Of a DNA stretch of 64,000 bases, positions 48,804 through 57,206 are shown piece by piece (within the stretch, counting starts at the first letter, position 1; every line of letters begins with the position of its first letter). The stretch covers positions 174-64,173 of the forward strand of contig JAGCDY010000085.1 in assembly GCA_017650925.1 (NCBI GenBank). Direction: 5' to 3'. The notes beneath the pieces are model-generated. The model saw nothing but the letters and a program-made list of their open reading frames with translations, searched no databases and was not told the DNA's origin. The DNA is from a bacterium. Its GTDB lineage: Bacteria > Auribacterota > UBA3054. Position numbers and translations under genes: made by a program.

Positions 48804-48841
48804 AAAAAAAGGCCCGCGGCTTGCGCCGCGGGTCTTTTTTT
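48804..48841. terminator. Bidirectional rho-independent terminator between the convergent beta-helix gene and hydA
   Basis: aaaaaaa ggcccgcggc ttgc gccgcgggtc ttttttt. This is a 10-bp G/C stem (one G-U pair) flanked by a 7-nt A run and a 7-nt T run. Confidence 0.85.
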
Positions 48842-48858: not shown

Positions 48859-50610
48859 TTATTTGTAGAGGCCGCGTTTCACGTACTTGGTATGCAGGCA
48901 CTCGTGAGCCTTGTGGCTGCCGGGTTTCTCATAGAATTCCGCATACACCTTCTTGATGCTGGGATTCTCATGAGACTTCCTGATCTTCATGCCACTGTCG
49001 AGCTGATAGAGCGCTTTGGCGCGTTCAGCCCTGATATCCACGGTGTTCCTGATACTGGCATGGACCTGGGGCTGGCCGCCGCCGTTGACGCAGCCGCCCG
49101 GGCAAGCCATGATCTCGATGAAGTGGTAGTCCGCTTCGCCGTTCCTGACCTTGGTCAGAAGTTCTTTCGCGTTGGCCAGGCCGCTCGCCACGGCGATCTT
49201 GACATCCATGCCAGCCACGTTGTAGGTGGCTTCCTTGATGCCTTTCGTTCCGCGGACTTCCTTGAAGTCGACGGCCTTCAGTTCCTGACCGGTGATCCAT
49301 TCGACAGCCGTTCTGAGAGCGGCTTCCATGACGCCGCCGGTGGCGCCGAAGATGACGGCCGCGCCGGTACTTTCGCCCAGAGGATCATCGAAGCCTTCGT
49401 CGGGCAGTTCGCGGAACTTGATGCCGTGATGCTTGATCATGCGGGCCAGTTCGCGGGTCGTGATGGAGTAGTCGAGGTCAGGGATGCCGGGGCCCGCGGC
49501 GGACTGGTCGTCGCGGCCGATCTCGAACTTCTTGGCCGTGCAGGGCATGACGGAGACGGAGACGATCTTCTTGGGATCGATGCCCATCTTCTGCGCGTAG
49601 TAGGTCTTCAGCGTGGCGCCGAACATCTGCTGCGGGGACTTGCAGGTGGAGAGGTTCTCGATCAGTTCGGGGAAGTAATGTTCGCAGAACTTGATCCAGC
49701 CGGGGGAGCAGGAGGTGATCAGAGGCAGCTTGCCGCCGTTCTTGACTCTCTCGACGAATTCGTTGGCTTCTTCCATGATGGTAAGGTCGGCGCTGAAGTC
49801 AGTGTCGAAGACCTTGTCGAAGCCCATGCGGCGCAAAGCGGCCGCCATCTTGCCTTCCACAGGGGTGCCCATGGGATAGCCGAATTCTTCGCCCAGAGCG
49901 GCTCTGACGGCCGGGGCGGTCTGCACGACCACGAACTTCTCGGGATCGTTGATGGCTTTCTGCACTTCCTCGGTGTAGTCCTTTTCCTTCAAAGCGCCCA
50001 CCGGGCAGACGGCGATGCACTGTCCGCAGCAGACGCAGCTCGTTTCACCCAAGCCCATTTCGAAGGGGGAGGTGATCCTGGTCTTGAAGCCGCGGCCGTT
50101 GGCGCCGATGACGCCCACAGCCTGGATCTTTTCGCAGACGGCCGTGCAGCGGCGGCAGAGGATGCACTTGTTGTTGTCGCGGATCATGTGCGCGGCGGAG
50201 ATGTCCTCTTCGGATTCGCTTCTCACGCCGTCGTAGTAGCCCTCGTCCTCGACGCCCATGTCGTGGGCCAGAGTCTGCAGTTCGCATTTGCTGCTGCGGA
50301 CGCAGGAGAGGCACTTGCGGTCGTGGTTGGAGAGGATCAGGGAGAGGGTCTTCTTCCTGGCTTCCAGAACGCGCGCTGAATTGGTGGTGATCTCGATGCC
50401 CTCGTTGACGGGGTAAACGCAGGCGGCCACGAGCGTGCGGGCTTTTTTGACTTCCACCACGCACATTCTGCAGGCGCCGATCTCGTTGATGCCTTTCAGG
50501 TAGCAGAGAGTGGGGATCTCCACTCCGGCGATGCGGCAGGCTTCCAGAATGGTGGAGCCGGCGGGCACGCTGTAATCTTTACCGTTTATTTTGACGTTTA
50601 CATTTTCCAT
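48859..50610 (-). CDS. hydA: [FeFe]-hydrogenase catalytic subunit, M3-type (HydA of a HydABC-type complex)
   Basis: N-terminal 2Fe-2S ferredoxin fold (..GACRMCVVEV), His-ligated and 2x[4Fe-4S] F-clusters, and H-cluster motifs L2 VMPCTAKKFE and L3 EIMACPGGCVNGGGQP. L1 reads TSCSPGW, which is non-canonical (see findings). Confidence 0.93.
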   Translation of the reverse strand: MENVNVKINGKDYSVPAGSTILEACRIAGVEIPTLCYLKGINEIGACRMCVVEVKKARTLVAACVYPVNEGIEITTNSARVLEARKKTLSLILSNHDRKCLSCVRSSKCELQTLAHDMGVEDEGYYDGVRSESEEDISAAHMIRDNNKCILCRRCTAVCEKIQAVGVIGANGRGFKTRITSPFEMGLGETSCVCCGQCIAVCPVGALKEKDYTEEVQKAINDPEKFVVVQTAPAVRAALGEEFGYPMGTPVEGKMAAALRRMGFDKVFDTDFSADLTIMEEANEFVERVKNGGKLPLITSCSPGWIKFCEHYFPELIENLSTCKSPQQMFGATLKTYYAQKMGIDPKKIVSVSVMPCTAKKFEIGRDDQSAAGPGIPDLDYSITTRELARMIKHHGIKFRELPDEGFDDPLGESTGAAVIFGATGGVMEAALRTAVEWITGQELKAVDFKEVRGTKGIKEATYNVAGMDVKIAVASGLANAKELLTKVRNGEADYHFIEIMACPGGCVNGGGQPQVHASIRNTVDIRAERAKALYQLDSGMKIRKSHENPSIKKVYAEFYEKPGSHKAHECLHTKYVKRGLYK

Positions 50611-50622
50611 AGTATTTCTCCC

Positions 50623-52425
50623 TTATTTCTTGCTGATAGCGCCGAATTTGCAGTTATCCATACAAGCGCCGCACTTGATGCACTTCGTGGTGTCGATCGT
50701 ATGGGGATTCCTGACTGTGCCAGTTATGGCGCCGACCGGGCAGTTGCGGGCGCACAGCGTGCAGCCTTTGCACTTCAGGGGGTCTATGACGTAATTGAGG
50801 AGCGCTTTGCAGACGCCGGCGGGGCAGCGTTTCTCCACAACGTGGGCCTCGTATTCCTTGCGGAAGTAGCGCAGGGTGGAAAGGACCGGGTTGGGGGCCG
50901 TCTGTCCGAGGCCGCAAAGGGAGTTGTCCTTGATGTAGTAGCAGAGGGCTTCGAGCTTGTCGAGATCCTCAAGGGTGGCTTTGCCTTCCGTGATCTTCGT
51001 CAGCATCTCAAGCATGCGGCGCGTGCCGATACGGCAGGGCGTGCATTTGCCGCAGGATTCGTCCACCGTGAATTCCAGGAAGAATTTCGCGATGTCGACC
51101 ATGCAGTTGTCCTCGTCCATGACGATCAAGCCGCCGGAGCCCATCATGGAGCCGATGGCCATCAGGTTGTCGTAGTCGATCTGAACGTCGAAGTGTTCGG
51201 CCGGGATGCAGCCGCCGGAAGGACCGCCGGTCTGCGCGGCTTTGAACTTCTTGCCGTTCGGAATACCGCCGCCGATGTCTTCCACGATCTGGCGGAGCGT
51301 CGTGCCCATGGGAACTTCCACAAGACCGGTGTTGTTGATCTTGCCGCCCAGGGCGAAGACCTTGGTGCCTTTCGATTTCTCGGTGCCGATACTGGCGAAC
51401 CACTGGGCGCCTTTCAGAATGATCTGAGGAATGTTGGCGTAGGTCTCGACGTTGTTAAGAATGGTCGGGCGCATGAAGAGGCCTTTGGCCGCCGGGAACG
51501 GGGGACGGGGCCTCGGTTCGCCGCGGTTGCCTTCAATAGACGTCATCAGAGCCGTTTCTTCGCCGCAGACGAAAGCGCCGGCGCCGAGGCGGATGTCGAT
51601 GTCGAAATCAAAGCCCGTGTTGAAGATGTTCTTGCCGAGGAGGCCGAGCTCTTTGGCCTGACCGATGGCGATCTGAAGACGCTTGACCGCGATGGGGTAC
51701 TCGGCGCGGACGTAGATGAAGCCCTGGTTGGAGCCGATCGCGTAGCCGGCGATGGCCATAGCTTCAAGGACGGCGTGCGGGTCGCCTTCCAGTACGGATC
51801 GATCCATGAAAGCGCCCGGGTCGCCTTCGTCAGCGTTGCAGCAGACGTACTTCGGTCCACCGTCGTTGACGAGCGTTCTGGCCAGTTTCCACTTCATGCC
51901 GGTGGGGAAGCCGGCGCCGCCGCGGCCTCTCAGGCCCGCGTCGAGAAGCGTCTGGATGACGTCTTCCGGTTTCATCTCGGTCAGCACTTTGCCAAGCGCG
52001 GCGTAGCCGTCCATGGCGATGTACTCGTTGATGTCCTCGGGGTTGATGACGCCGCAGTTCCTAAGCGCGATGCGCATCTGGGCGCGGTAGAATTTGGTGT
52101 CGTTCAAGGAAACGTCGGCCTTGTTCTTCAGTTCGTCGGTGACGTCCTTGTATTCGAGGCGCTCGACGATGCGGCCCTTAAGCAGATGCTCGGAGACGAT
52201 CTCTTCCACGTCGCCTTCCGTGACGCGGGAGTAGAAGGTGCCGTCGGGATAGACGATGACCACGGGGCCGAGGGCGCACAGGCCGAAGCAGCCGGTCTGC
52301 ACGATCTTGACTTCCTGGTCCAACTCATACTTTTTGAGGTTAGTCTCGAAAGACTCCATCAGCTTGTGGCTGCCGGAAGAGGTGCAGCCGGTGCCGCCGC
52401 AGATCAATACTTGTGCACGAATCAT
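50623..52425 (-). CDS. hydB: NuoF-like flavoprotein subunit of bifurcating-type hydrogenase (HydB)
   Basis: N-terminal thioredoxin-like 2Fe-2S domain (CGGTGC..GCFGLC), the NuoF core GRGGAGFPTGMKW, the ESCGKCTPCR cluster, and a C-terminal 2x[4Fe-4S] (CKGCTLCARNCP, CIKCGACMDNC). Confidence 0.93.
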   Translation of the reverse strand: MIRAQVLICGGTGCTSSGSHKLMESFETNLKKYELDQEVKIVQTGCFGLCALGPVVIVYPDGTFYSRVTEGDVEEIVSEHLLKGRIVERLEYKDVTDELKNKADVSLNDTKFYRAQMRIALRNCGVINPEDINEYIAMDGYAALGKVLTEMKPEDVIQTLLDAGLRGRGGAGFPTGMKWKLARTLVNDGGPKYVCCNADEGDPGAFMDRSVLEGDPHAVLEAMAIAGYAIGSNQGFIYVRAEYPIAVKRLQIAIGQAKELGLLGKNIFNTGFDFDIDIRLGAGAFVCGEETALMTSIEGNRGEPRPRPPFPAAKGLFMRPTILNNVETYANIPQIILKGAQWFASIGTEKSKGTKVFALGGKINNTGLVEVPMGTTLRQIVEDIGGGIPNGKKFKAAQTGGPSGGCIPAEHFDVQIDYDNLMAIGSMMGSGGLIVMDEDNCMVDIAKFFLEFTVDESCGKCTPCRIGTRRMLEMLTKITEGKATLEDLDKLEALCYYIKDNSLCGLGQTAPNPVLSTLRYFRKEYEAHVVEKRCPAGVCKALLNYVIDPLKCKGCTLCARNCPVGAITGTVRNPHTIDTTKCIKCGACMDNCKFGAISKK

Positions 52426-52437
52426 AAAGTCTCCTCC

Positions 52438-52809
52438 TTATTTGGCGAAAGCGGCGATGGTGTACTCCGTCACGACCTTGCCGCCCTTGAGGTGTTCCTT
52501 GATGACGCGGTCCGCTTTCTCGGCGGTCATCTTGACGTAAGTGACTTTGTCTTTCCCGGGTTCGAAGATCTCCACGACGGGCTCGTACTGGCAGATGCCG
52601 ATGCAGCCGGTCTGGGTGACGGCGACTTCGCCGGAAAGGCCTTCCTTGTTGACGCCTTCGACAAAAGCGTTCAAGACGGGACGGGCGCCGGCCGCGATGC
52701 CGCAGGTGGCCATGCCGACCACCACGCGTTTCTGCGCGGAGCCTTCCCTCAGGACGACTTTGTCTTTCATCTTGTCTTTGATTGCTTGAAGTTCAGCCAA
52801 AGATTTCAT
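52438..52809 (-). CDS. Small thioredoxin-like [2Fe-2S] ferredoxin-domain protein (HydD-like accessory subunit)
   Basis: 123 aa with ..GMATCGIAAGA.. and ..TGCIGICQYEP.. Cys pairs. It lies immediately upstream of hydB. Confidence 0.7.
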   Translation of the reverse strand: MKSLAELQAIKDKMKDKVVLREGSAQKRVVVGMATCGIAAGARPVLNAFVEGVNKEGLSGEVAVTQTGCIGICQYEPVVEIFEPGKDKVTYVKMTAEKADRVIKEHLKGGKVVTEYTIAAFAK

Positions 52810-52829
52810 AAGTGTTCCTTGAGTTGAAG

Positions 52830-53381
52830 TTAGTTAGATGTATATTGTTCTTTCAAATATTCGCCGATCCAGGTTATCACCTCGAACTCCGAGAGGGGAA
52901 CGTCCGGTCCCAGCTCTTTCCTTATCTCCCTGGTGTCGAGGAAGGCCTCGCCTCCGGGAAAGACATGATGGAAAAGGAAGTCACTCTCGGGATGCCCCTG
53001 GATAAGAGTCGTCATGGTCGAGACTACGTCGCCCAAGGGGATGTAGTCGATGTGGTCCTTCTTGAAAGTCGCTTCGATACGAGTGCCGTGGTCCGCGGGA
53101 TGCTCCTTTTCCGACTTGGAGGAAATGGAAAAAGTTCCGCCCGTCATTTCCGCTTCCATCTTGAAGAAGGGGATGCCCAGGCCGACTTTTCGCGTCGTCC
53201 TCGTCGTGTAGAAGGGGTCGGTCACTTTTTTCAGGATCTCATGGGTCATGCCGCAGCCGTTGTCTATGACGGCGATCGTCAAAGTTTTCTCCGTTTCGTC
53301 TATTCTTATCTCGGTCAAAGGCGCCTTAGCCTTGACGGAGTTTTCCGCGATGTCCAGTATGTTGAGGGACAGTTCTTTCAC
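52830..53381 (-). CDS. GHKL/HATPase_c-type ATP-binding protein (no sensor, DHp or receiver domain visible)
   Basis: N-box-like LNILDIAENSV, DNGCGM (G1) and GLGIPF (G2). 183 aa. Confidence 0.65.
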   Translation of the reverse strand: MKELSLNILDIAENSVKAKAPLTEIRIDETEKTLTIAVIDNGCGMTHEILKKVTDPFYTTRTTRKVGLGIPFFKMEAEMTGGTFSISSKSEKEHPADHGTRIEATFKKDHIDYIPLGDVVSTMTTLIQGHPESDFLFHHVFPGGEAFLDTREIRKELGPDVPLSEFEVITWIGEYLKEQYTSN

Positions 53382-54112
53382 GCTATCCCCCTAAGTTTCT
53401 TGAAGAGCTCGCTTCTCACCTTGTCGCCGCTGTAGGGCTCGTCGTCCAGGTCGAAGTAGTTCTCCTTTTCTTTCAATTGCTCGATCATGTGGGCGTCCGA
53501 ACTGATGACGACCGTTTTGCCCTGCAGGCCGTAGCGCTCGGTGTAGTCCGGAATGTTTTCCCTGTCACGCATTTCATAGCAGGCGAATTCCGGAACTTTC
53601 GGCATTTCGCCAAGGATCGCGATGATGCCATTGGCCTCGCGGTCGATGTGGGCGGGGTAGCAGAGACCGTGGTGGCGCTCAACTATTTCCGGAGCCTCTT
53701 CCAATCCGACCGTCGTGGCGTTGGGCAGCAGGTTTTCTTCTTCCGCCAAAACGTTGTCGTCCTCGTCCATGACGAGCTGGTCGCCGAAGATGTCCTTTCT
53801 GTTCGCTATCCTGATCCTGCGCTTGTCGATCTCCTCAGAGAAAGCCATGGCGTCCTCCAAGGTGGGGAAGAGGCAGACGAGGTGCACTTCCTCCGCCGTG
53901 GTCAGCTCCATGCCGGCCACCGGGATGACGCCGTAATTCTTGGCAGCCTTATAGAAGGCCGGGCAGTTCTTGCCGCTGTTGTGATCCGTTAGAGCCACGA
54001 TCTGCAGCCCGTTCAGGGCCGCCAGCCCCGCGATGTTGCAGGGCGTCATGTCGTTCTCCGCGCAGGGAGAAAGGCAGGAGTGGATGTGCAGATCGTAGTA
54101 GTAGCGGTTCAT
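53378..54112 (-). CDS. PHP-domain phosphoesterase
   Basis: YYDLHIHSCLSPC.. and ..ALTDHNS.. His-rich metal motifs, plus ..ISSDAH.. 244 aa. Confidence 0.75.
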   Translation of the reverse strand: MNRYYYDLHIHSCLSPCAENDMTPCNIAGLAALNGLQIVALTDHNSGKNCPAFYKAAKNYGVIPVAGMELTTAEEVHLVCLFPTLEDAMAFSEEIDKRRIRIANRKDIFGDQLVMDEDDNVLAEEENLLPNATTVGLEEAPEIVERHHGLCYPAHIDREANGIIAILGEMPKVPEFACYEMRDRENIPDYTERYGLQGKTVVISSDAHMIEQLKEKENYFDLDDEPYSGDKVRSELFKKLRGIA

Positions 54113-54435
54113 TCCGATTCGATCAAAAGTTTCGCGGCTTCAAAGGCCGGCAGTTTGGTGGCGAGGATGTTTACGCCCTTCGCCTTAGCGTTTTCTATGA
54201 TGTTTTCTTCCAACTGAACGTCTTCCGCCAGGATGATGCAGGCCACGTCGATGAGGGCCGCCACGGCGATGATGTTCTGATTGGACATAATGGTTATCCA
54301 GGCCTGGTCGGCCTTCGCGCGGCCCATCACCCAGGAGAGCAGGTCTCCCACGTAGCCGCCTTTAATTTCCCTTTCCCCGTTGGGAAGAGAGAGGACCGTA
54401 AGGGAGCATTTCTCGGCGAATTCCTTAACTTGCAT
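54109..54435 (-). CDS. DRTGG-domain-like small protein
   Basis: 108 aa with the same fold pattern as 56127..56486 (..ITIMSNQNIIAVAAL..ACIILAE..). Both ends overlap neighbouring genes. Confidence 0.55.
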   Translation of the reverse strand: MQVKEFAEKCSLTVLSLPNGEREIKGGYVGDLLSWVMGRAKADQAWITIMSNQNIIAVAALIDVACIILAEDVQLEENIIENAKAKGVNILATKLPAFEAAKLLIESE

Positions 54436-55705
54436 TGTTTTTCTCCCTCAGGTATTCCTTAACTTCGTCCGCGTGCATCAAGATGCAGTCGTACTTCTGC
54501 GCGTTGCCCTTTATTACGTCCTCCGCGAAGGCGCGGCAGTTGGGCGCGCCGCAGGCTCCGCAATCCACGCCCGGCAGCTCGTCCCGTAATATCCTGATCT
54601 CTTTCAGCATGCGCATGGATTCCGCCATGTTGTCGCTAAGCTGATTCAGAGGCTTATAAGAGCCCATGTCGCTCACGAAATAGCTTTCCGGTATGGGATC
54701 GTTTTCGTCCACGAAATTCTGTGAGACCGGCATGAAGCGCCTAAGCGTCTGCAGTCTCGCCTTGGCGATGAAGGGATCCTGGATCGTCATGGCGCCGCCC
54801 ACGCAGCCGCCCGGGCAGGCGTTCAGCTCCACGAATTCCAGAGCGGGGAAGTCGCCGCCTTCGATGCGGTCAAGCACCCTTATGACGTTGTCGATGCCGT
54901 CCGCCGCAAGATATGCGTCGTTGAAAAGCGCCGTGGCCTCGCCGCCGGAAGCGGCCCAGCCGATGCCGATCATGCCGGATTCGGATAGCGTCTTGGGTCG
55001 GCGGGAATATTTCATTTCATTCAGCAGCAAAAAATAGACGTCCTTGAAGCCCACCACCACGTCCACCTGGCTCTTGTAAGAGGGGAGTCCGTTCTTGACG
55101 TAACTCATCTTGGCGGGGCAGGGGGAAATGAAGCAGACACCGACGTCTTCGCTCTTGAATTCCGGATGGTCTTTCAGAGCCTGCTCCCTGGCCATGGCGG
55201 CCGCCACTTCCATGGGCGGCAGCATGTCGAGGATGTTCTCCTTGAGGCTCGGGAAGCGCAGCGCGATGAGTCTCACGATGGCAGGGCAGGCCGAGCTGAT
55301 GACGGGCCTCGGGCCTTTCCTGAGCTTCAGATACTGCCTCGTCCTGGCCGTCACCAGTTCCGCGCCCCTGGAGACTTCGAAGACGTCGTCGAAACCGATG
55401 TCAAGAAGTCCCTGCAGCACGAAGTCCACGTCCTCGAGATTGTTGAACTGGGCGTAGAGGCTGGGGGCGGGGAGAGCGATCTTCCATTTGAATCTCTGGA
55501 GATCCAGTAGATCGTCGCGCAGGGCCTTCTTGGCCTGGTGCGGACAGATCCTGATGCATTCGCCGCAGTCGATGCAGCGCGCGGCGTCTATGACCGCGTG
55601 CTTATCCCTGATCCTGATAGCCTCGGTAGGGCAGTGGTGAACGCAGGAAGTGCAGCCTTTGCACTTCTCGACGTCCAGGGATACTGAATGCTGGTATTCC
55701 ATCAT
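54425..55705 (-). CDS. [FeFe]-hydrogenase-like protein with degenerate H-cluster motifs (putative sensory HydS-type, no PAS domain)
   Basis: N-terminal 2x[4Fe-4S] (CKGCTSCVHHCP, CIDCGECIRICP). L1-like ISSACPAIV, L2-like ISPCPAKMSYV and L3-like ELNACPGGCVGGAM. Extra C-terminal Cys cluster VDCGACGAPNCRAF. Confidence 0.75.
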   Translation of the reverse strand: MMEYQHSVSLDVEKCKGCTSCVHHCPTEAIRIRDKHAVIDAARCIDCGECIRICPHQAKKALRDDLLDLQRFKWKIALPAPSLYAQFNNLEDVDFVLQGLLDIGFDDVFEVSRGAELVTARTRQYLKLRKGPRPVISSACPAIVRLIALRFPSLKENILDMLPPMEVAAAMAREQALKDHPEFKSEDVGVCFISPCPAKMSYVKNGLPSYKSQVDVVVGFKDVYFLLLNEMKYSRRPKTLSESGMIGIGWAASGGEATALFNDAYLAADGIDNVIRVLDRIEGGDFPALEFVELNACPGGCVGGAMTIQDPFIAKARLQTLRRFMPVSQNFVDENDPIPESYFVSDMGSYKPLNQLSDNMAESMRMLKEIRILRDELPGVDCGACGAPNCRAFAEDVIKGNAQKYDCILMHADEVKEYLREKNNAS

Positions 55706-56130
55706 TTGGGGAGATCGATCCTCATCGTTACGGTGGTGCCTACGCCGACGGTCGACTCGATCTTCATGTCGTCGGTGTAGCGTTTCATATTGGGAAGCCC
55801 CATGCCGGCTCCGAAGCCCAGCTGGCGGATGTTGTCGGGAGCCGTGGAATAGCCTTCCTGCATGGCTTTCGCGATGTCGGGAATGCCCGGACCTTTGTCC
55901 GACAAGGTTATCGTTATGGCTTCCTCCGTTACCTCAACGTCGGCGCAGCCGCCATGCGCGTGGATGACCATGTTGATCTCTCCTTCGTACATGGCGATGG
56001 AAGCTCTCCTGATGATCTCAGGATCGACGCCCAGTTCGCGCATGTTCTTCTTGAAGCGCACGGAGGCCTGGCCGGCCGAGGTGAAGTCCTCGCCGTTCAC
56101 GTCAAAGTGAAGAGTGAGAGCTTCGCTCAT
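55702..56130 (-). CDS. RsbW/SpoIIAB-like anti-sigma-type Ser/Thr kinase (HATPase_c)
   Basis: 142 aa with EGEINMVIHA, DKGPGIPD and GFGAGMGLPNMKRY motifs. Confidence 0.7.
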   Translation of the reverse strand: MSEALTLHFDVNGEDFTSAGQASVRFKKNMRELGVDPEIIRRASIAMYEGEINMVIHAHGGCADVEVTEEAITITLSDKGPGIPDIAKAMQEGYSTAPDNIRQLGFGAGMGLPNMKRYTDDMKIESTVGVGTTVTMRIDLPK

Positions 56131-56486
56131 CTTTTCTTGACTCCCTTGCTGGTCAGTCCGTTGGAGTAGAGGATGCCGCAGGCTTCGTACATGCGCTTGT
56201 CGGTCGCCAGAACGACCAGGCCGTGCTCATGCGCGAGCTTCACCATTTCCGGCGTGGGCTTTTTAGAGCGCACGAAGACGAGGCAGATCATGTCCATCAT
56301 CTCCGCGGTCCTTATGACCTGGGGATTGACGAGGCCCGTCAACAAGACCGACTGGTCTTTCACGTAAGCCAGAACGTCGCTCATCATGTCGCTTCCGCAG
56401 GCACTGTAGACGTCCTTTTCAAGCTCCGCTTCATCGCCGCAAAGAAGTTCGGCGTCCAAGTATTCTTTGACTTCTTTGATCTTCAT
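56127..56486 (-). CDS. DRTGG-domain protein
   Basis: 119 aa. ..SVLLTGLVNPQVIRTAEMMDMICLVFVR..P..MV.LA.EHGLVVLAT.. matches my recollection of the DRTGG pattern. Confidence 0.6.
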   Translation of the reverse strand: MKIKEVKEYLDAELLCGDEAELEKDVYSACGSDMMSDVLAYVKDQSVLLTGLVNPQVIRTAEMMDMICLVFVRSKKPTPEMVKLAHEHGLVVLATDKRMYEACGILYSNGLTSKGVKKR

Positions 56487-56498
56487 AAAAGGAAACGA

Positions 56499-56987
56499 TC
56501 AGTCCTTATACTTGGCAAGGATGCCGGGGATCTGGTCAGGAGTCAGACGGCCGTAGACTTCGCCGTTGATCATCATGACAGGAGCGAGACCGCAGGCGCC
56601 CAGACAGCGGCAGGCTTCCAGGCTGAACTTGCCGTCCGGCGTGCAGCCGCCGCCCTGAAGGCCGAGGGTGTTTTCCAGTTTGGCGTAAACGTCGCCGGAC
56701 CCTTTGACGTAGCAGGCCGTGCCGAGACAGACCGCGATCTGGTATTTGCCCTTGGGCTCGAGCGTGAACATGGCGTAGAAGGTGGAGATGCCGTAAACTT
56801 TCTCCAGGGGAATGTCCATTTCACGGGCGATGATGGTCTGAACTTCGATGGGCAGGTAGCCGTAGATCTCCTGAGCTTTCTGCATGATGGGAATGAGGTT
56901 GCCCTGCACGTCCTTCATCTCTTTGATGTAGGCAATGAGCTGCTCTTCCTGTTCTTTGGTGCCGTTGAAAGGAACCGTTTTTTTCAT
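56499..56987 (-). CDS. hydC: NuoE-like [2Fe-2S] subunit of bifurcating-type hydrogenase (HydC)
   Basis: CLGTACYVKG ... CRCLGACGLAPVMMIN, with SD ggagg 5 nt upstream. It is the first gene of the operon. Confidence 0.9.
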   Translation of the reverse strand: MKKTVPFNGTKEQEEQLIAYIKEMKDVQGNLIPIMQKAQEIYGYLPIEVQTIIAREMDIPLEKVYGISTFYAMFTLEPKGKYQIAVCLGTACYVKGSGDVYAKLENTLGLQGGGCTPDGKFSLEACRCLGACGLAPVMMINGEVYGRLTPDQIPGILAKYKD

Positions 56988-57037: not shown

Positions 57038-57046
57038 ATTATACCA
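57038..57046 (-). promoter_or_regulatory. Extended -10 element TGGTATAAT (- strand) for the hydrogenase operon
   Basis: The + strand reads attatacca, about 50 nt upstream of the hydC ATG. The leader is AT-rich and ends in ggagg. Confidence 0.55.
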
Positions 57047-57079
57047 TAAAGCCGCCCCCTTTTCCACGCGGCTTTTCGT

Positions 57080-57108
57080 TTGACTTTAAGGGCCTGTTTG
57101 AGTAGAAT
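57080..57108 (+). promoter_or_regulatory. Sigma-70-type promoter for tRNA-His
   Basis: TTGACT (57080-57085), a 17-nt spacer, then TAGAAT (57103-57108). It lies about 20 nt upstream of the tRNA 5' end. Confidence 0.6.
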
Positions 57109-57128
57109 AAGTGAACTTGATTTTTAGT

Positions 57129-57206
57129 GGTGGATGTAGCTCAGTTGGTTAGAGCGTCTGGTTGTGGCCCAGAAGGCCGGGAGTTCAAGTCTCCTCATTC
57201 ACCCCA
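57129..57206 (+). tRNA. tRNA-His (anticodon GUG) with encoded G-1 and CCA
   Basis: Folded by hand: G GTGGATG TA GCTC AGTTGGTTA GAGC G TCTGG TTGTGGC CCAGA AGGCC GGGAG TTCAAGT CTCCT CATTCAC C CCA. G-1 pairs with C73, the hallmark of tRNA-His. Confidence 0.9.

Follow-up and report, generated by a model that had tools for sequence, protein, structure and literature searches.

A probable HydABC(D)-type [FeFe] hydrogenase operon with a group D HydS cassette in a rumen bacterium outside the Clostridia

The DNA analyzed here, referred to below as the window, is a stretch of 64,000 nucleotides (nt) from a bacterium of the phylum Auribacterota (assembly GCA_017650925.1, contig JAGCDY010000085.1, positions 174 to 64,173). 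Ten co-oriented genes on its minus strand (48859-56987) form an operon that very probably encodes a HydABC(D)-type, NADH-linked and presumably electron-bifurcating [FeFe] hydrogenase, together with an accessory cassette for putative H2 sensing built around a group D (M2e) sensory hydrogenase, HydS. How this cassette might act on the hydrogenase is considered on the basis of domains, conservation, co-occurrence and natural gene fusions.

Operon structure

The following features were identified, listed in the direction of transcription with lengths in amino acids (aa).

57038-57066, minus strand: sigma-70-type promoter, TGGAAA, 17-nt spacer, TG-extended TATAAT
56499-56987, minus strand: hydC, NuoE-like thioredoxin-like [2Fe-2S] subunit, 162 aa (Pfam PF01257 2Fe-2S_thioredx, 8.8e-51)
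56127-56486, minus strand: DRTGG1, DRTGG-domain protein, 119 aa (Pfam PF07085)
55702-56130, minus strand: SpoIIAB/RsbW-like GHKL protein of the Ser-kinase type, 142 aa (Pfam/NCBIfam, profile search)
54425-55705, minus strand: HydS, group D (M2e) putative sensory [FeFe] hydrogenase, 426 aa (two Fer4, Fe_hyd_lg_C, PF04060)
54109-54435, minus strand: DRTGG2, paralogue of DRTGG1, 108 aa (Pfam)
53378-54112, minus strand: PHP-family metal-dependent phosphoesterase, 244 aa (Pfam, AlphaFold2 model with pLDDT 94)
52830-53381, minus strand: stand-alone GHKL ATPase, equivalent of 'HydE' of Acetobacterium woodii, 183 aa (HATPase_c only)
52438-52809, minus strand: hydD-like small thioredoxin-like ferredoxin, 123 aa (Pfam and NCBIfam)
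50623-52425, minus strand: hydB, NuoF-like flavin mononucleotide/NADH subunit with an N-terminal 2Fe-2S domain and a C-terminal 2x[4Fe-4S] domain, 600 aa (Complex1_51K, NADH_4Fe-4S, SLBB)
48859-50610, minus strand: hydA, catalytic [FeFe] hydrogenase, 583 aa (NF040763)
48804-48832, minus strand: intrinsic terminator, 8-bp all-GC stem CCCGCGGC-GCAA-GCCGCGGG followed by a T-run

An earlier reading, made from the sequence alone (hereafter the sequence-only reading), had described ten tightly coupled genes in this order, bracketed by one extended -10 promoter and one strong terminator. All of this holds, as the open reading frames (ORFs) lie where they had been placed, every domain named was recovered with Pfam or NCBIfam, and both transcription signals were located, with the terminator's stem and T-run at 48832-48813. 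Genes overlap at five of the nine junctions (by 4, 4, 11, 4 and 4 nt), all within the block from DRTGG1 to the GHKL ATPase gene, while 12-20 nt separate the genes at the other four. In the leader, which is only about 45 nt long, a GGAGG ribosome-binding site precedes the hydC ATG by 7 nt, and no further terminator-like site was found on the minus strand within the operon.

Hydrogenase subunits

HydA, with NuoG-like N-terminal clusters, is encoded together with a NuoF-like HydB and a NuoE-like HydC, the combination by which HydABC-type enzymes (group A3/A6) are recognized. It scores 912 bits against NF040763, 'NADH-dependent [FeFe] hydrogenase, group A6' (cut-off 765), and HydC is 60-72% identical to HydC in Clostridia loci. 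Ferredoxin- and NAD-coupled bifurcation by HydABC is inferred solely from this family membership. HydA and HydS are the only proteins in the genome with a Fe_hyd_lg_C domain, and the HydF maturase is found in eight of the nine genomes of the genus.

The small protein between the GHKL ATPase and HydB had been described as a 2Fe-2S protein. It does match thioredoxin-like ferredoxins, with a Pfam score (24.6 bits) marginally below the 24.8-bit cut-off, but it has only three cysteines (C36, C69 and C73), which are invariant in 41 orthologues, and the canonical fourth ligand is absent. No cofactor site was seen in A. woodii HydD either (PMC3315566).

The L1 motif of HydA (49696-49716) reads TSCSPGW, where the textbook form is TSCCPxW. 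Since TSCSP is common to all 36 HydA orthologues from related operons of the same type (unit A, below), the variant is typical of the clade and neither an error nor a loss.

The putative sensory hydrogenase HydS

HydS had been taken for a degenerate hydrogenase. This does not hold, since all four Cys ligands of the H-cluster are retained in its H-domain (motifs SSACP, SPCPAK and ELNACPGGCVGG (ELNACPGGC); Fe_hyd_lg_C, 1.3e-29). The proton-relay residue Cys299 is replaced by Ala (in SSACP) and Met353 by Ser (in SPCPAK). Fer4 matches at residues 8-63 indicate two N-terminal [4Fe-4S] sites, the C-terminus carries CGAC-GAPN-C-x16-C, i.e. a motif of the Cx2Cx4Cx16C type (PF04060, 1.1e-12), and no PAS domain was found in a Pfam scan at E≤10. 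HydS accordingly has every sequence feature of the M2e, or group D, putative sensory [FeFe] hydrogenases, as these are delimited in PMC8163306. Of the 79 HydS-family ORFs that the 80 related loci contain, 67 have S[ST]ACP, 76 have [ST]PC and all 79 have the C-terminal four-Cys motif.

This is a named class with a biochemically studied member, TamHydS of Thermoanaerobacter mathranii, which binds an H-cluster and combines high H2 affinity with low turnover rates (PMC8163306). The gene for TamHydS is situated upstream of a bifurcating HydABC and adjoins a gene for a histidine-kinase-like ATPase (Land et al. 2020, PMC8163306); an AraC-family regulator has also been reported to flank it (PMC8163306). 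HydS of the window resembles it in the two N-terminal [4Fe-4S] sites, the four Cys ligands, SSACP, SPCPAK, the Cx2Cx4Cx16C motif and the lack of PAS, as well as in its location in or beside a group A bifurcating-type hydrogenase operon, near a histidine-kinase-like ATPase. Unlike TamHydS, it belongs to a rumen bacterium of a small non-Clostridia phylum, is known from sequence alone, and has its cassette embedded between hydC and the GHKL ATPase gene; it also has Asn at position 497, a poorly conserved position where TamHydS has Leu. According to a 2026 follow-up, H2 does not reduce TamHydS's C-terminal cluster (PMC13104023). Its signaling partners are unknown (PMC8163306, PMC13104023), the 2026 paper calling the identification of interaction partners the critical missing step, and group D was still functionally undefined in a 2024 survey (PMC11216029). 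The description of the module as uncharacterized is therefore valid for its signaling mechanism, but not for its HydS class.

Two gene units and their distribution

By mapping the ten window proteins onto the 80 loci encoding HydS relatives, we could divide the operon into two units. Unit A, hydC-GHKL-hydD-hydB-hydA, matches hydC-hydE-hydD-hydB-hydA1 of A. woodii gene by gene and in order (Poehlein et al. 2012, PMC3315566), the difference being that the window has a five-gene HydS cassette inserted between hydC and the GHKL gene. This cassette, unit B, is DRTGG1-kinase-HydS-DRTGG2-PHP, and its order is kept in nearly all of the 80 loci, where these are long enough to show it. A further comparison to the A. 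woodii operon type is the HydABCD operon of Thermoanaerobacter tengcongensis.

The relative placement of the two units varies. They are divergent neighbors in most loci from Oscillospiraceae, Lachnospiraceae and Ruminococcus, whereas six loci (L039, L045, L053, L059, L102 and L103) have unit B ahead of unit A, with both on the same strand. In the window, as in the close rumen relatives L001-L007, unit B is embedded after hydC and before the GHKL gene. The ten-gene order of the window is also found in three independently sampled Clostridia genomes (L099-L101), and the layout is thus recurrent rather than peculiar to the window organism. Of 12 genomes with an unlinked unit B, 10 have unit A at another place, always as hydC-GHKL-hydD-hydB. 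The GHKL gene is always located between hydC and hydD, even with the cassette elsewhere. The six regulatory genes that the sequence-only reading saw inserted between structural subunits are hence all present, but they are really a five-gene cassette plus an ATPase gene that is fixed in the hydC-hydD operon type.

Among 401 evenly sampled Clostridia species, 199 have the kinase. The GHKL ATPase occurs in 19 out of 20 kinase-bearing Clostridia genomes and in one out of 20 kinase-less ones, which ties this 'HydE' ATPase to the cassette at the genome level, even though its position is in the structural operon. Given this spread and the repeated ten-gene order, the arrangement does not stand out as unusual, as had been suggested; the layout is already known, ordinary and repeatedly seen.

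Origin, selection and expression

The phylum of the window organism is represented by only 79 species genomes in the collection, and group D HydS is confined there to the window's own genus (eight out of nine genomes). Identity of the window's HydB to its counterparts in the same phylum does not exceed 63%, as compared to 70-80% with Clostridia HydB, and a relative within the phylum (L087) has a plain hydC-hydB-hydA. From these three observations, the whole ten-gene cluster was probably acquired horizontally from Clostridia. A compositional signature of recent transfer was looked for and rejected: G+C in the operon (0.56-0.61) is about equal to that of the flanks, which means that the transfer was not a recent one.

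Within the genus, the ratio of nonsynonymous to synonymous substitution rates (dN/dS) is 0.04-0.15 for the six module genes, and these are accordingly functional and under purifying selection. Synonymous divergence itself differs along the operon. In comparisons with L001, L003, L004 and L006, dS is 0.09-0.37 for hydC, hydD, hydB and hydA but 0.5-1.7 for the six module genes, i.e. 3-10 times lower for the structural genes, with the values changing abruptly from the GHKL gene to hydD. Codon-usage selection or interspecies recombination of the structural genes could explain this.

Contigs 85-99% identical to the operon are found in bovine rumen metatranscriptome assemblies, and single contigs cross the HydS/kinase/DRTGG1 and DRTGG1/hydC junctions. 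When RNA was mapped at 93% likeness, only the structural genes, which are highly conserved, were covered. Lowering this to 80% brought the depth over DRTGG1 to HydS to a level comparable to that over hydC/hydD in runs X1 and X2, while it was still lower in X14 and over the PHP/GHKL stretch. Differential expression was consequently rejected as an explanation of the low module depth at 93%, which is mostly a mapping artefact, since the module genes diverge faster.

The kinase and its putative DRTGG partners

The kinase has an intact set of invariant motifs, namely the N-box (E49, N53), G1 (D78xGxG82), G2 (GFGAGMGLPN) and an N-terminal DFT.AG.AS. It matches TIGR01925 at 3e-16, under the family cut-off, and its only strong solved-structure relatives in a profile search are the SpoIIAB anti-sigma F factor structures 1TIL, 1L0O and 1TH8 (about 1e-11). 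DRTGG1 shows the highest conservation in the cassette, its identity being 70-77% over the best 120 database clusters, and the motifs ACGSDMMSDVLA.VK, GL.N.Q..RTA.MMD and VR.K.P are invariant in 53 orthologues. It shares D[LM][LM]S and T.[LM].N.[QN] with DRTGG2. A Joint Genome Institute (JGI) label on homologues, 'predicted transcriptional regulator', was dismissed as having no domain support, and a literature search pairing 'DRTGG' with 'hydrogenase' returned nothing relevant.

The kinase was queried against 1.84 billion cluster representatives, and longer matches were resolved by Pfam scans. Two of these are full-length kinase-HydS fusions (P0149 and P0202), and among the best 150 representatives there are about 35 in which the kinase forms the N-terminus of a 480-590 aa protein. 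DRTGG-kinase fusions were found in P0131 and P0166, with weak DRTGG scores (E about 1e-3), and fusions of a CBS pair to the kinase in P0129, P0154, P0163 and P0244. Domain order in the kinase-HydS and DRTGG-kinase fusions is the same as the gene order in the window. A genome scan with the kinase gave no fusions, with open frames of 138-246 aa among the matches listed. Taken together, the natural fusions point to the kinase as a signaling hub, coupled to a sensor (HydS or a CBS pair) and to DRTGG1, as judged from sequence.

In three CBS-kinase loci (L105-L107), the fusion gene is flanked by a DRTGG1-like gene on its upstream side and a DRTGG2-like gene on its downstream side, and a lone receiver-domain gene is also present. 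These loci represent a HydS-less variant of the core (L105 5072-7298, also L106 and L107), which adjoins hydA, a TM1266-like gene, hydF, hydG and hydE.

The PHP phosphoesterase and a possible nucleotide signal

All metal-ligand motifs of the PHP protein are invariant (H9xH11, D43-H44, E69, H77, H155 and D206xH208). Its model ranks closest in fold to EndoQ (query-normalized TM-score 0.64-0.69), BAD_1165, RNase AM, the pAp phosphatase Cv1693 and polymerase PHP domains, including that of Pol III. All 33 significant fold matches in the PDB are EndoQ, BAD_1165, RNase AM, Cv1693, PsfC or polymerase PHP domains, and the sequence profile agrees; PHP-type protein phosphatases (CpsB/YwqE type) are not found among the 33. 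This weakens the idea that PHP replaces PP2C and lends some weight to a nucleotide signal. No DRTGG2-PHP or PHP-GHKL fusion was found in the best 120 PHP homologues.

A nucleotide signal handled by the PHP domain had been offered by the sequence-only reading as an alternative output. Here the DRTGG proteins (and CBS pairs) would bind an adenine or dinucleotide ligand that PHP hydrolyzes, and HydS with the kinase would integrate H2 and nucleotide status to tune the hydrogenase. The fold neighbors of PHP, including Cv1693 with bound AMP, give it some support, as do the CBS-pair-kinase fusions flanked by DRTGG1-like and DRTGG2-like genes. NCBIfam matches of the DRTGG proteins furthermore include CBS-pyrophosphatases, in which DRTGG is inserted between the CBS domains. 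CBS-pyrophosphatases respond to adenine and diadenosine nucleotides. However, the cassette has no messenger cyclase or synthetase, both GHKL proteins retain kinase/ATPase motifs, and stand-alone DRTGG proteins have no known ligand. We keep this rival as an unlikely one.

The stand-alone GHKL ATPase and a possible role in assembly

The N, G1, F and G2 boxes of the stand-alone GHKL ATPase are intact and its catalytic motifs invariant. It has no DHp/HisKA domain, but instead a C-terminal subdomain of about 75 aa with a conserved D..P.GD motif. In sequence it is closest to the catalytic and ATP-binding (CA) domains of histidine kinases. Its model (pLDDT 88), on the other hand, gives the best full-length alignments to MutL-N, Topo VI-B and GRP94, with histidine kinases aligning over the ATP-binding fold only. 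The name 'HydE' stems from the A. woodii workers, and the protein is absent from the purified A. woodii enzyme (PMC3315566).

A task in assembly, maturation or repair could also be envisaged for the cassette, with HydS and the GHKL ATPases helping to insert cofactors or to put HydABC(D) together, as a scaffold or a chaperone. For HydE, 'assembly or signalling' was left open by the A. woodii authors (PMC3315566), the full-length alignments to MutL-N, Topo VI-B and GRP94-type ATPases fit such a role, and the HydS-less CBS-kinase variant lies beside hydF, hydG and hydE. We nevertheless regard it as very unlikely, as HydABC without the cassette is common, e.g. in L087 of the same phylum, TamHydS has sensor-like kinetics (PMC8163306), and SpoIIAB-type kinases are signaling proteins.

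Search for a regulatory output

The sequence-only reading had recognized no HTH (helix-turn-helix), sigma-factor, STAS or receiver domain in the six module genes. A sensitive Pfam scan bears this out: at E≤10 none of the six proteins has an HTH, sigma, STAS, Response_reg, PAS or HisKA domain, and no PP2C domain is encoded in the operon. A two-component system was thereby rejected, as neither GHKL protein has HisKA and the operon has no Response_reg. A lone receiver gene is found only in the CBS-kinase variant loci. When all ORFs of the 80 loci were clustered, no HTH or other regulator gene turned out to be conserved beside unit B; the neighbors are lineage-specific only, namely a DtxR-like gene, oppositely oriented AraC-like genes and, in three loci, hfs-type clusters. 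Rex was likewise rejected as the output in this lineage, its N-terminal family (PF06971) being absent from all nine genomes of the genus and no Rex-box-like site being found near hydC.

Transcriptional control could still be exerted through a factor encoded elsewhere. The kinase would then sequester a sigma factor or another regulator, e.g. Rex or an AraC-type protein, with the DRTGG proteins as anti-anti-factors, and H2 would set hyd transcription. In favor of this are the restriction of the strong solved-structure matches of the kinase to anti-sigma F factor, the AraC-family regulator flanking TamHydS (PMC8163306) and the AraC-like or DtxR-like genes near the cassette in some lineages. We judge it quite unlikely, considering that no HTH gene is conserved beside the cassette in the 80 loci, that Rex occurs in none of the nine genus genomes and no Rex box was found, that the promoter is a consensus sigma-70 extended -10 promoter with a leader of only about 45 nt, and that the cluster apparently entered a foreign phylum with no regulator and yet is under purifying selection. 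As the cluster was kept functional after its probable transfer into a Rex-less lineage, its output should lie within the cluster or act on something universal, and it is probably encoded within the ten genes themselves.

Proposed mechanism

Post-translational control of HydABC, as put forward in the sequence-only reading, is still the best reading, although it is drawn from domains, conservation, co-occurrence and fusions. In this scheme, HydS would bind an H-cluster and report H2 or the redox state through a conformational change. It would be physically wired to the SpoIIAB-like GHKL kinase, to which it is fused elsewhere in the same order as the genes here, and the kinase would also bind DRTGG1. 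ATP-dependent phosphorylation or partner exchange would follow, with the DRTGG proteins as adaptor or acceptor in place of STAS, and the PHP phosphoesterase would reset the state. The output would be post-translational and directed at the co-encoded hydrogenase, probably via the HydE-like GHKL ATPase encoded between hydC and hydD, and no DNA-binding partner would be required.

Several points weigh against this mechanism. Phosphorylation, complex formation or an H2 response has been demonstrated for no member of the cassette. The motifs shared by the two DRTGG proteins might line a pocket for a ligand instead of providing a phospho-acceptor site, and the CBS-kinase fusions point to an adenine-nucleotide input. 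In sequence profile and modeled fold alike, PHP falls among phosphoesterases of nucleotides and nucleic acids (EndoQ, RNase AM and pAp phosphatases) and not among PHP-type protein phosphatases. The stand-alone GHKL protein may be an ATPase switch or a chaperone rather than a kinase, since its full-length model aligns with MutL and Topo VI-B as well as with histidine kinases, and among solved structures the kinase is closest to an anti-sigma factor. The transcript contigs are consistent with co-transcription, but they were assembled from related strains and may include DNA.

An H2-sensing cassette with post-translational output is thus proposed tentatively, as somewhat less than an even bet, while for identity and mechanism taken together we consider the chances of being right and of being wrong about equal. 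A bolder version would see the cassette as a self-contained H2-gated switch, horizontally mobile and of an undescribed build, in which an H-cluster sensor is hard-wired to a SpoIIAB-type kinase, DRTGG stands in for STAS and PHP for PP2C, and the output, without a transcription factor, reaches the electron-bifurcating hydrogenase post-translationally via the HydE-like ATPase. This version is doubtful. Were it true, the genus would be a natural test case, as it has the whole cluster and lacks Rex.

Relation to known systems and significance

The cassette is reminiscent of the SpoIIAB-SpoIIAA-SpoIIE and RsbW-RsbV-RsbU modules in its small SpoIIAB-like GHKL kinase (1e-11 to 1TIL), its tight translational coupling, its adjacent alpha/beta partner proteins of about 110 aa and the presence of a phosphoesterase gene in the same unit. 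It differs from them in having DRTGG instead of STAS, PHP instead of PP2C, no sigma factor, and an H-cluster protein as input. Among the components of such partner-switching systems, the SpoIIAB/RsbW-like GHKL kinase was found, and a STAS antagonist, a PP2C phosphatase and a target sigma factor were not.

Signal relay from sensory [FeFe] hydrogenases is an acknowledged open question, for which the conserved neighbors and the fusions provide candidate partners, with the kinase heading the list, followed by the two DRTGG proteins, the PHP enzyme and the HydE-like ATPase. What this locus adds is a whole cluster under purifying selection in a Rex-less rumen lineage outside the Clostridia. Since the partial pressure of H2 in the rumen controls the fermentation balance and methane formation, regulation of a hydrogenase is physiologically weighty there.

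Group C (M2f) HydS proteins, e.g. TmHydS, Ruminococcus albus HydS and those of hfs-type clusters, also have an H-domain without the proton-relay Cys and the same C-terminal four-Cys motif, and are likewise encoded near catalytic hydrogenases. They have a fused PAS and are paired with PP2C phosphatases or Ser/Thr kinases, whereas the window has the group D type only. The two systems stand side by side in three loci from Bacillota metagenome-assembled genomes (L015 12577-17276, also L023 and L028), where an hfs-type cluster directly downstream of the group D cassette encodes another hydrogenase in addition to a small 2Fe-2S protein, a SpoIIE/PP2C-like phosphatase and a group C HydS that contains a PAS region, so that both sensor types are adjacent.

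Upstream of the hyd operon, and divergent from it, lies a tRNA-His gene on the plus strand (57130-57206). It is preceded by a promoter-like site, TTGACT-17-TAGAAT (57080-57108), which is positioned back to back with the hyd promoter (window 57080-57206).

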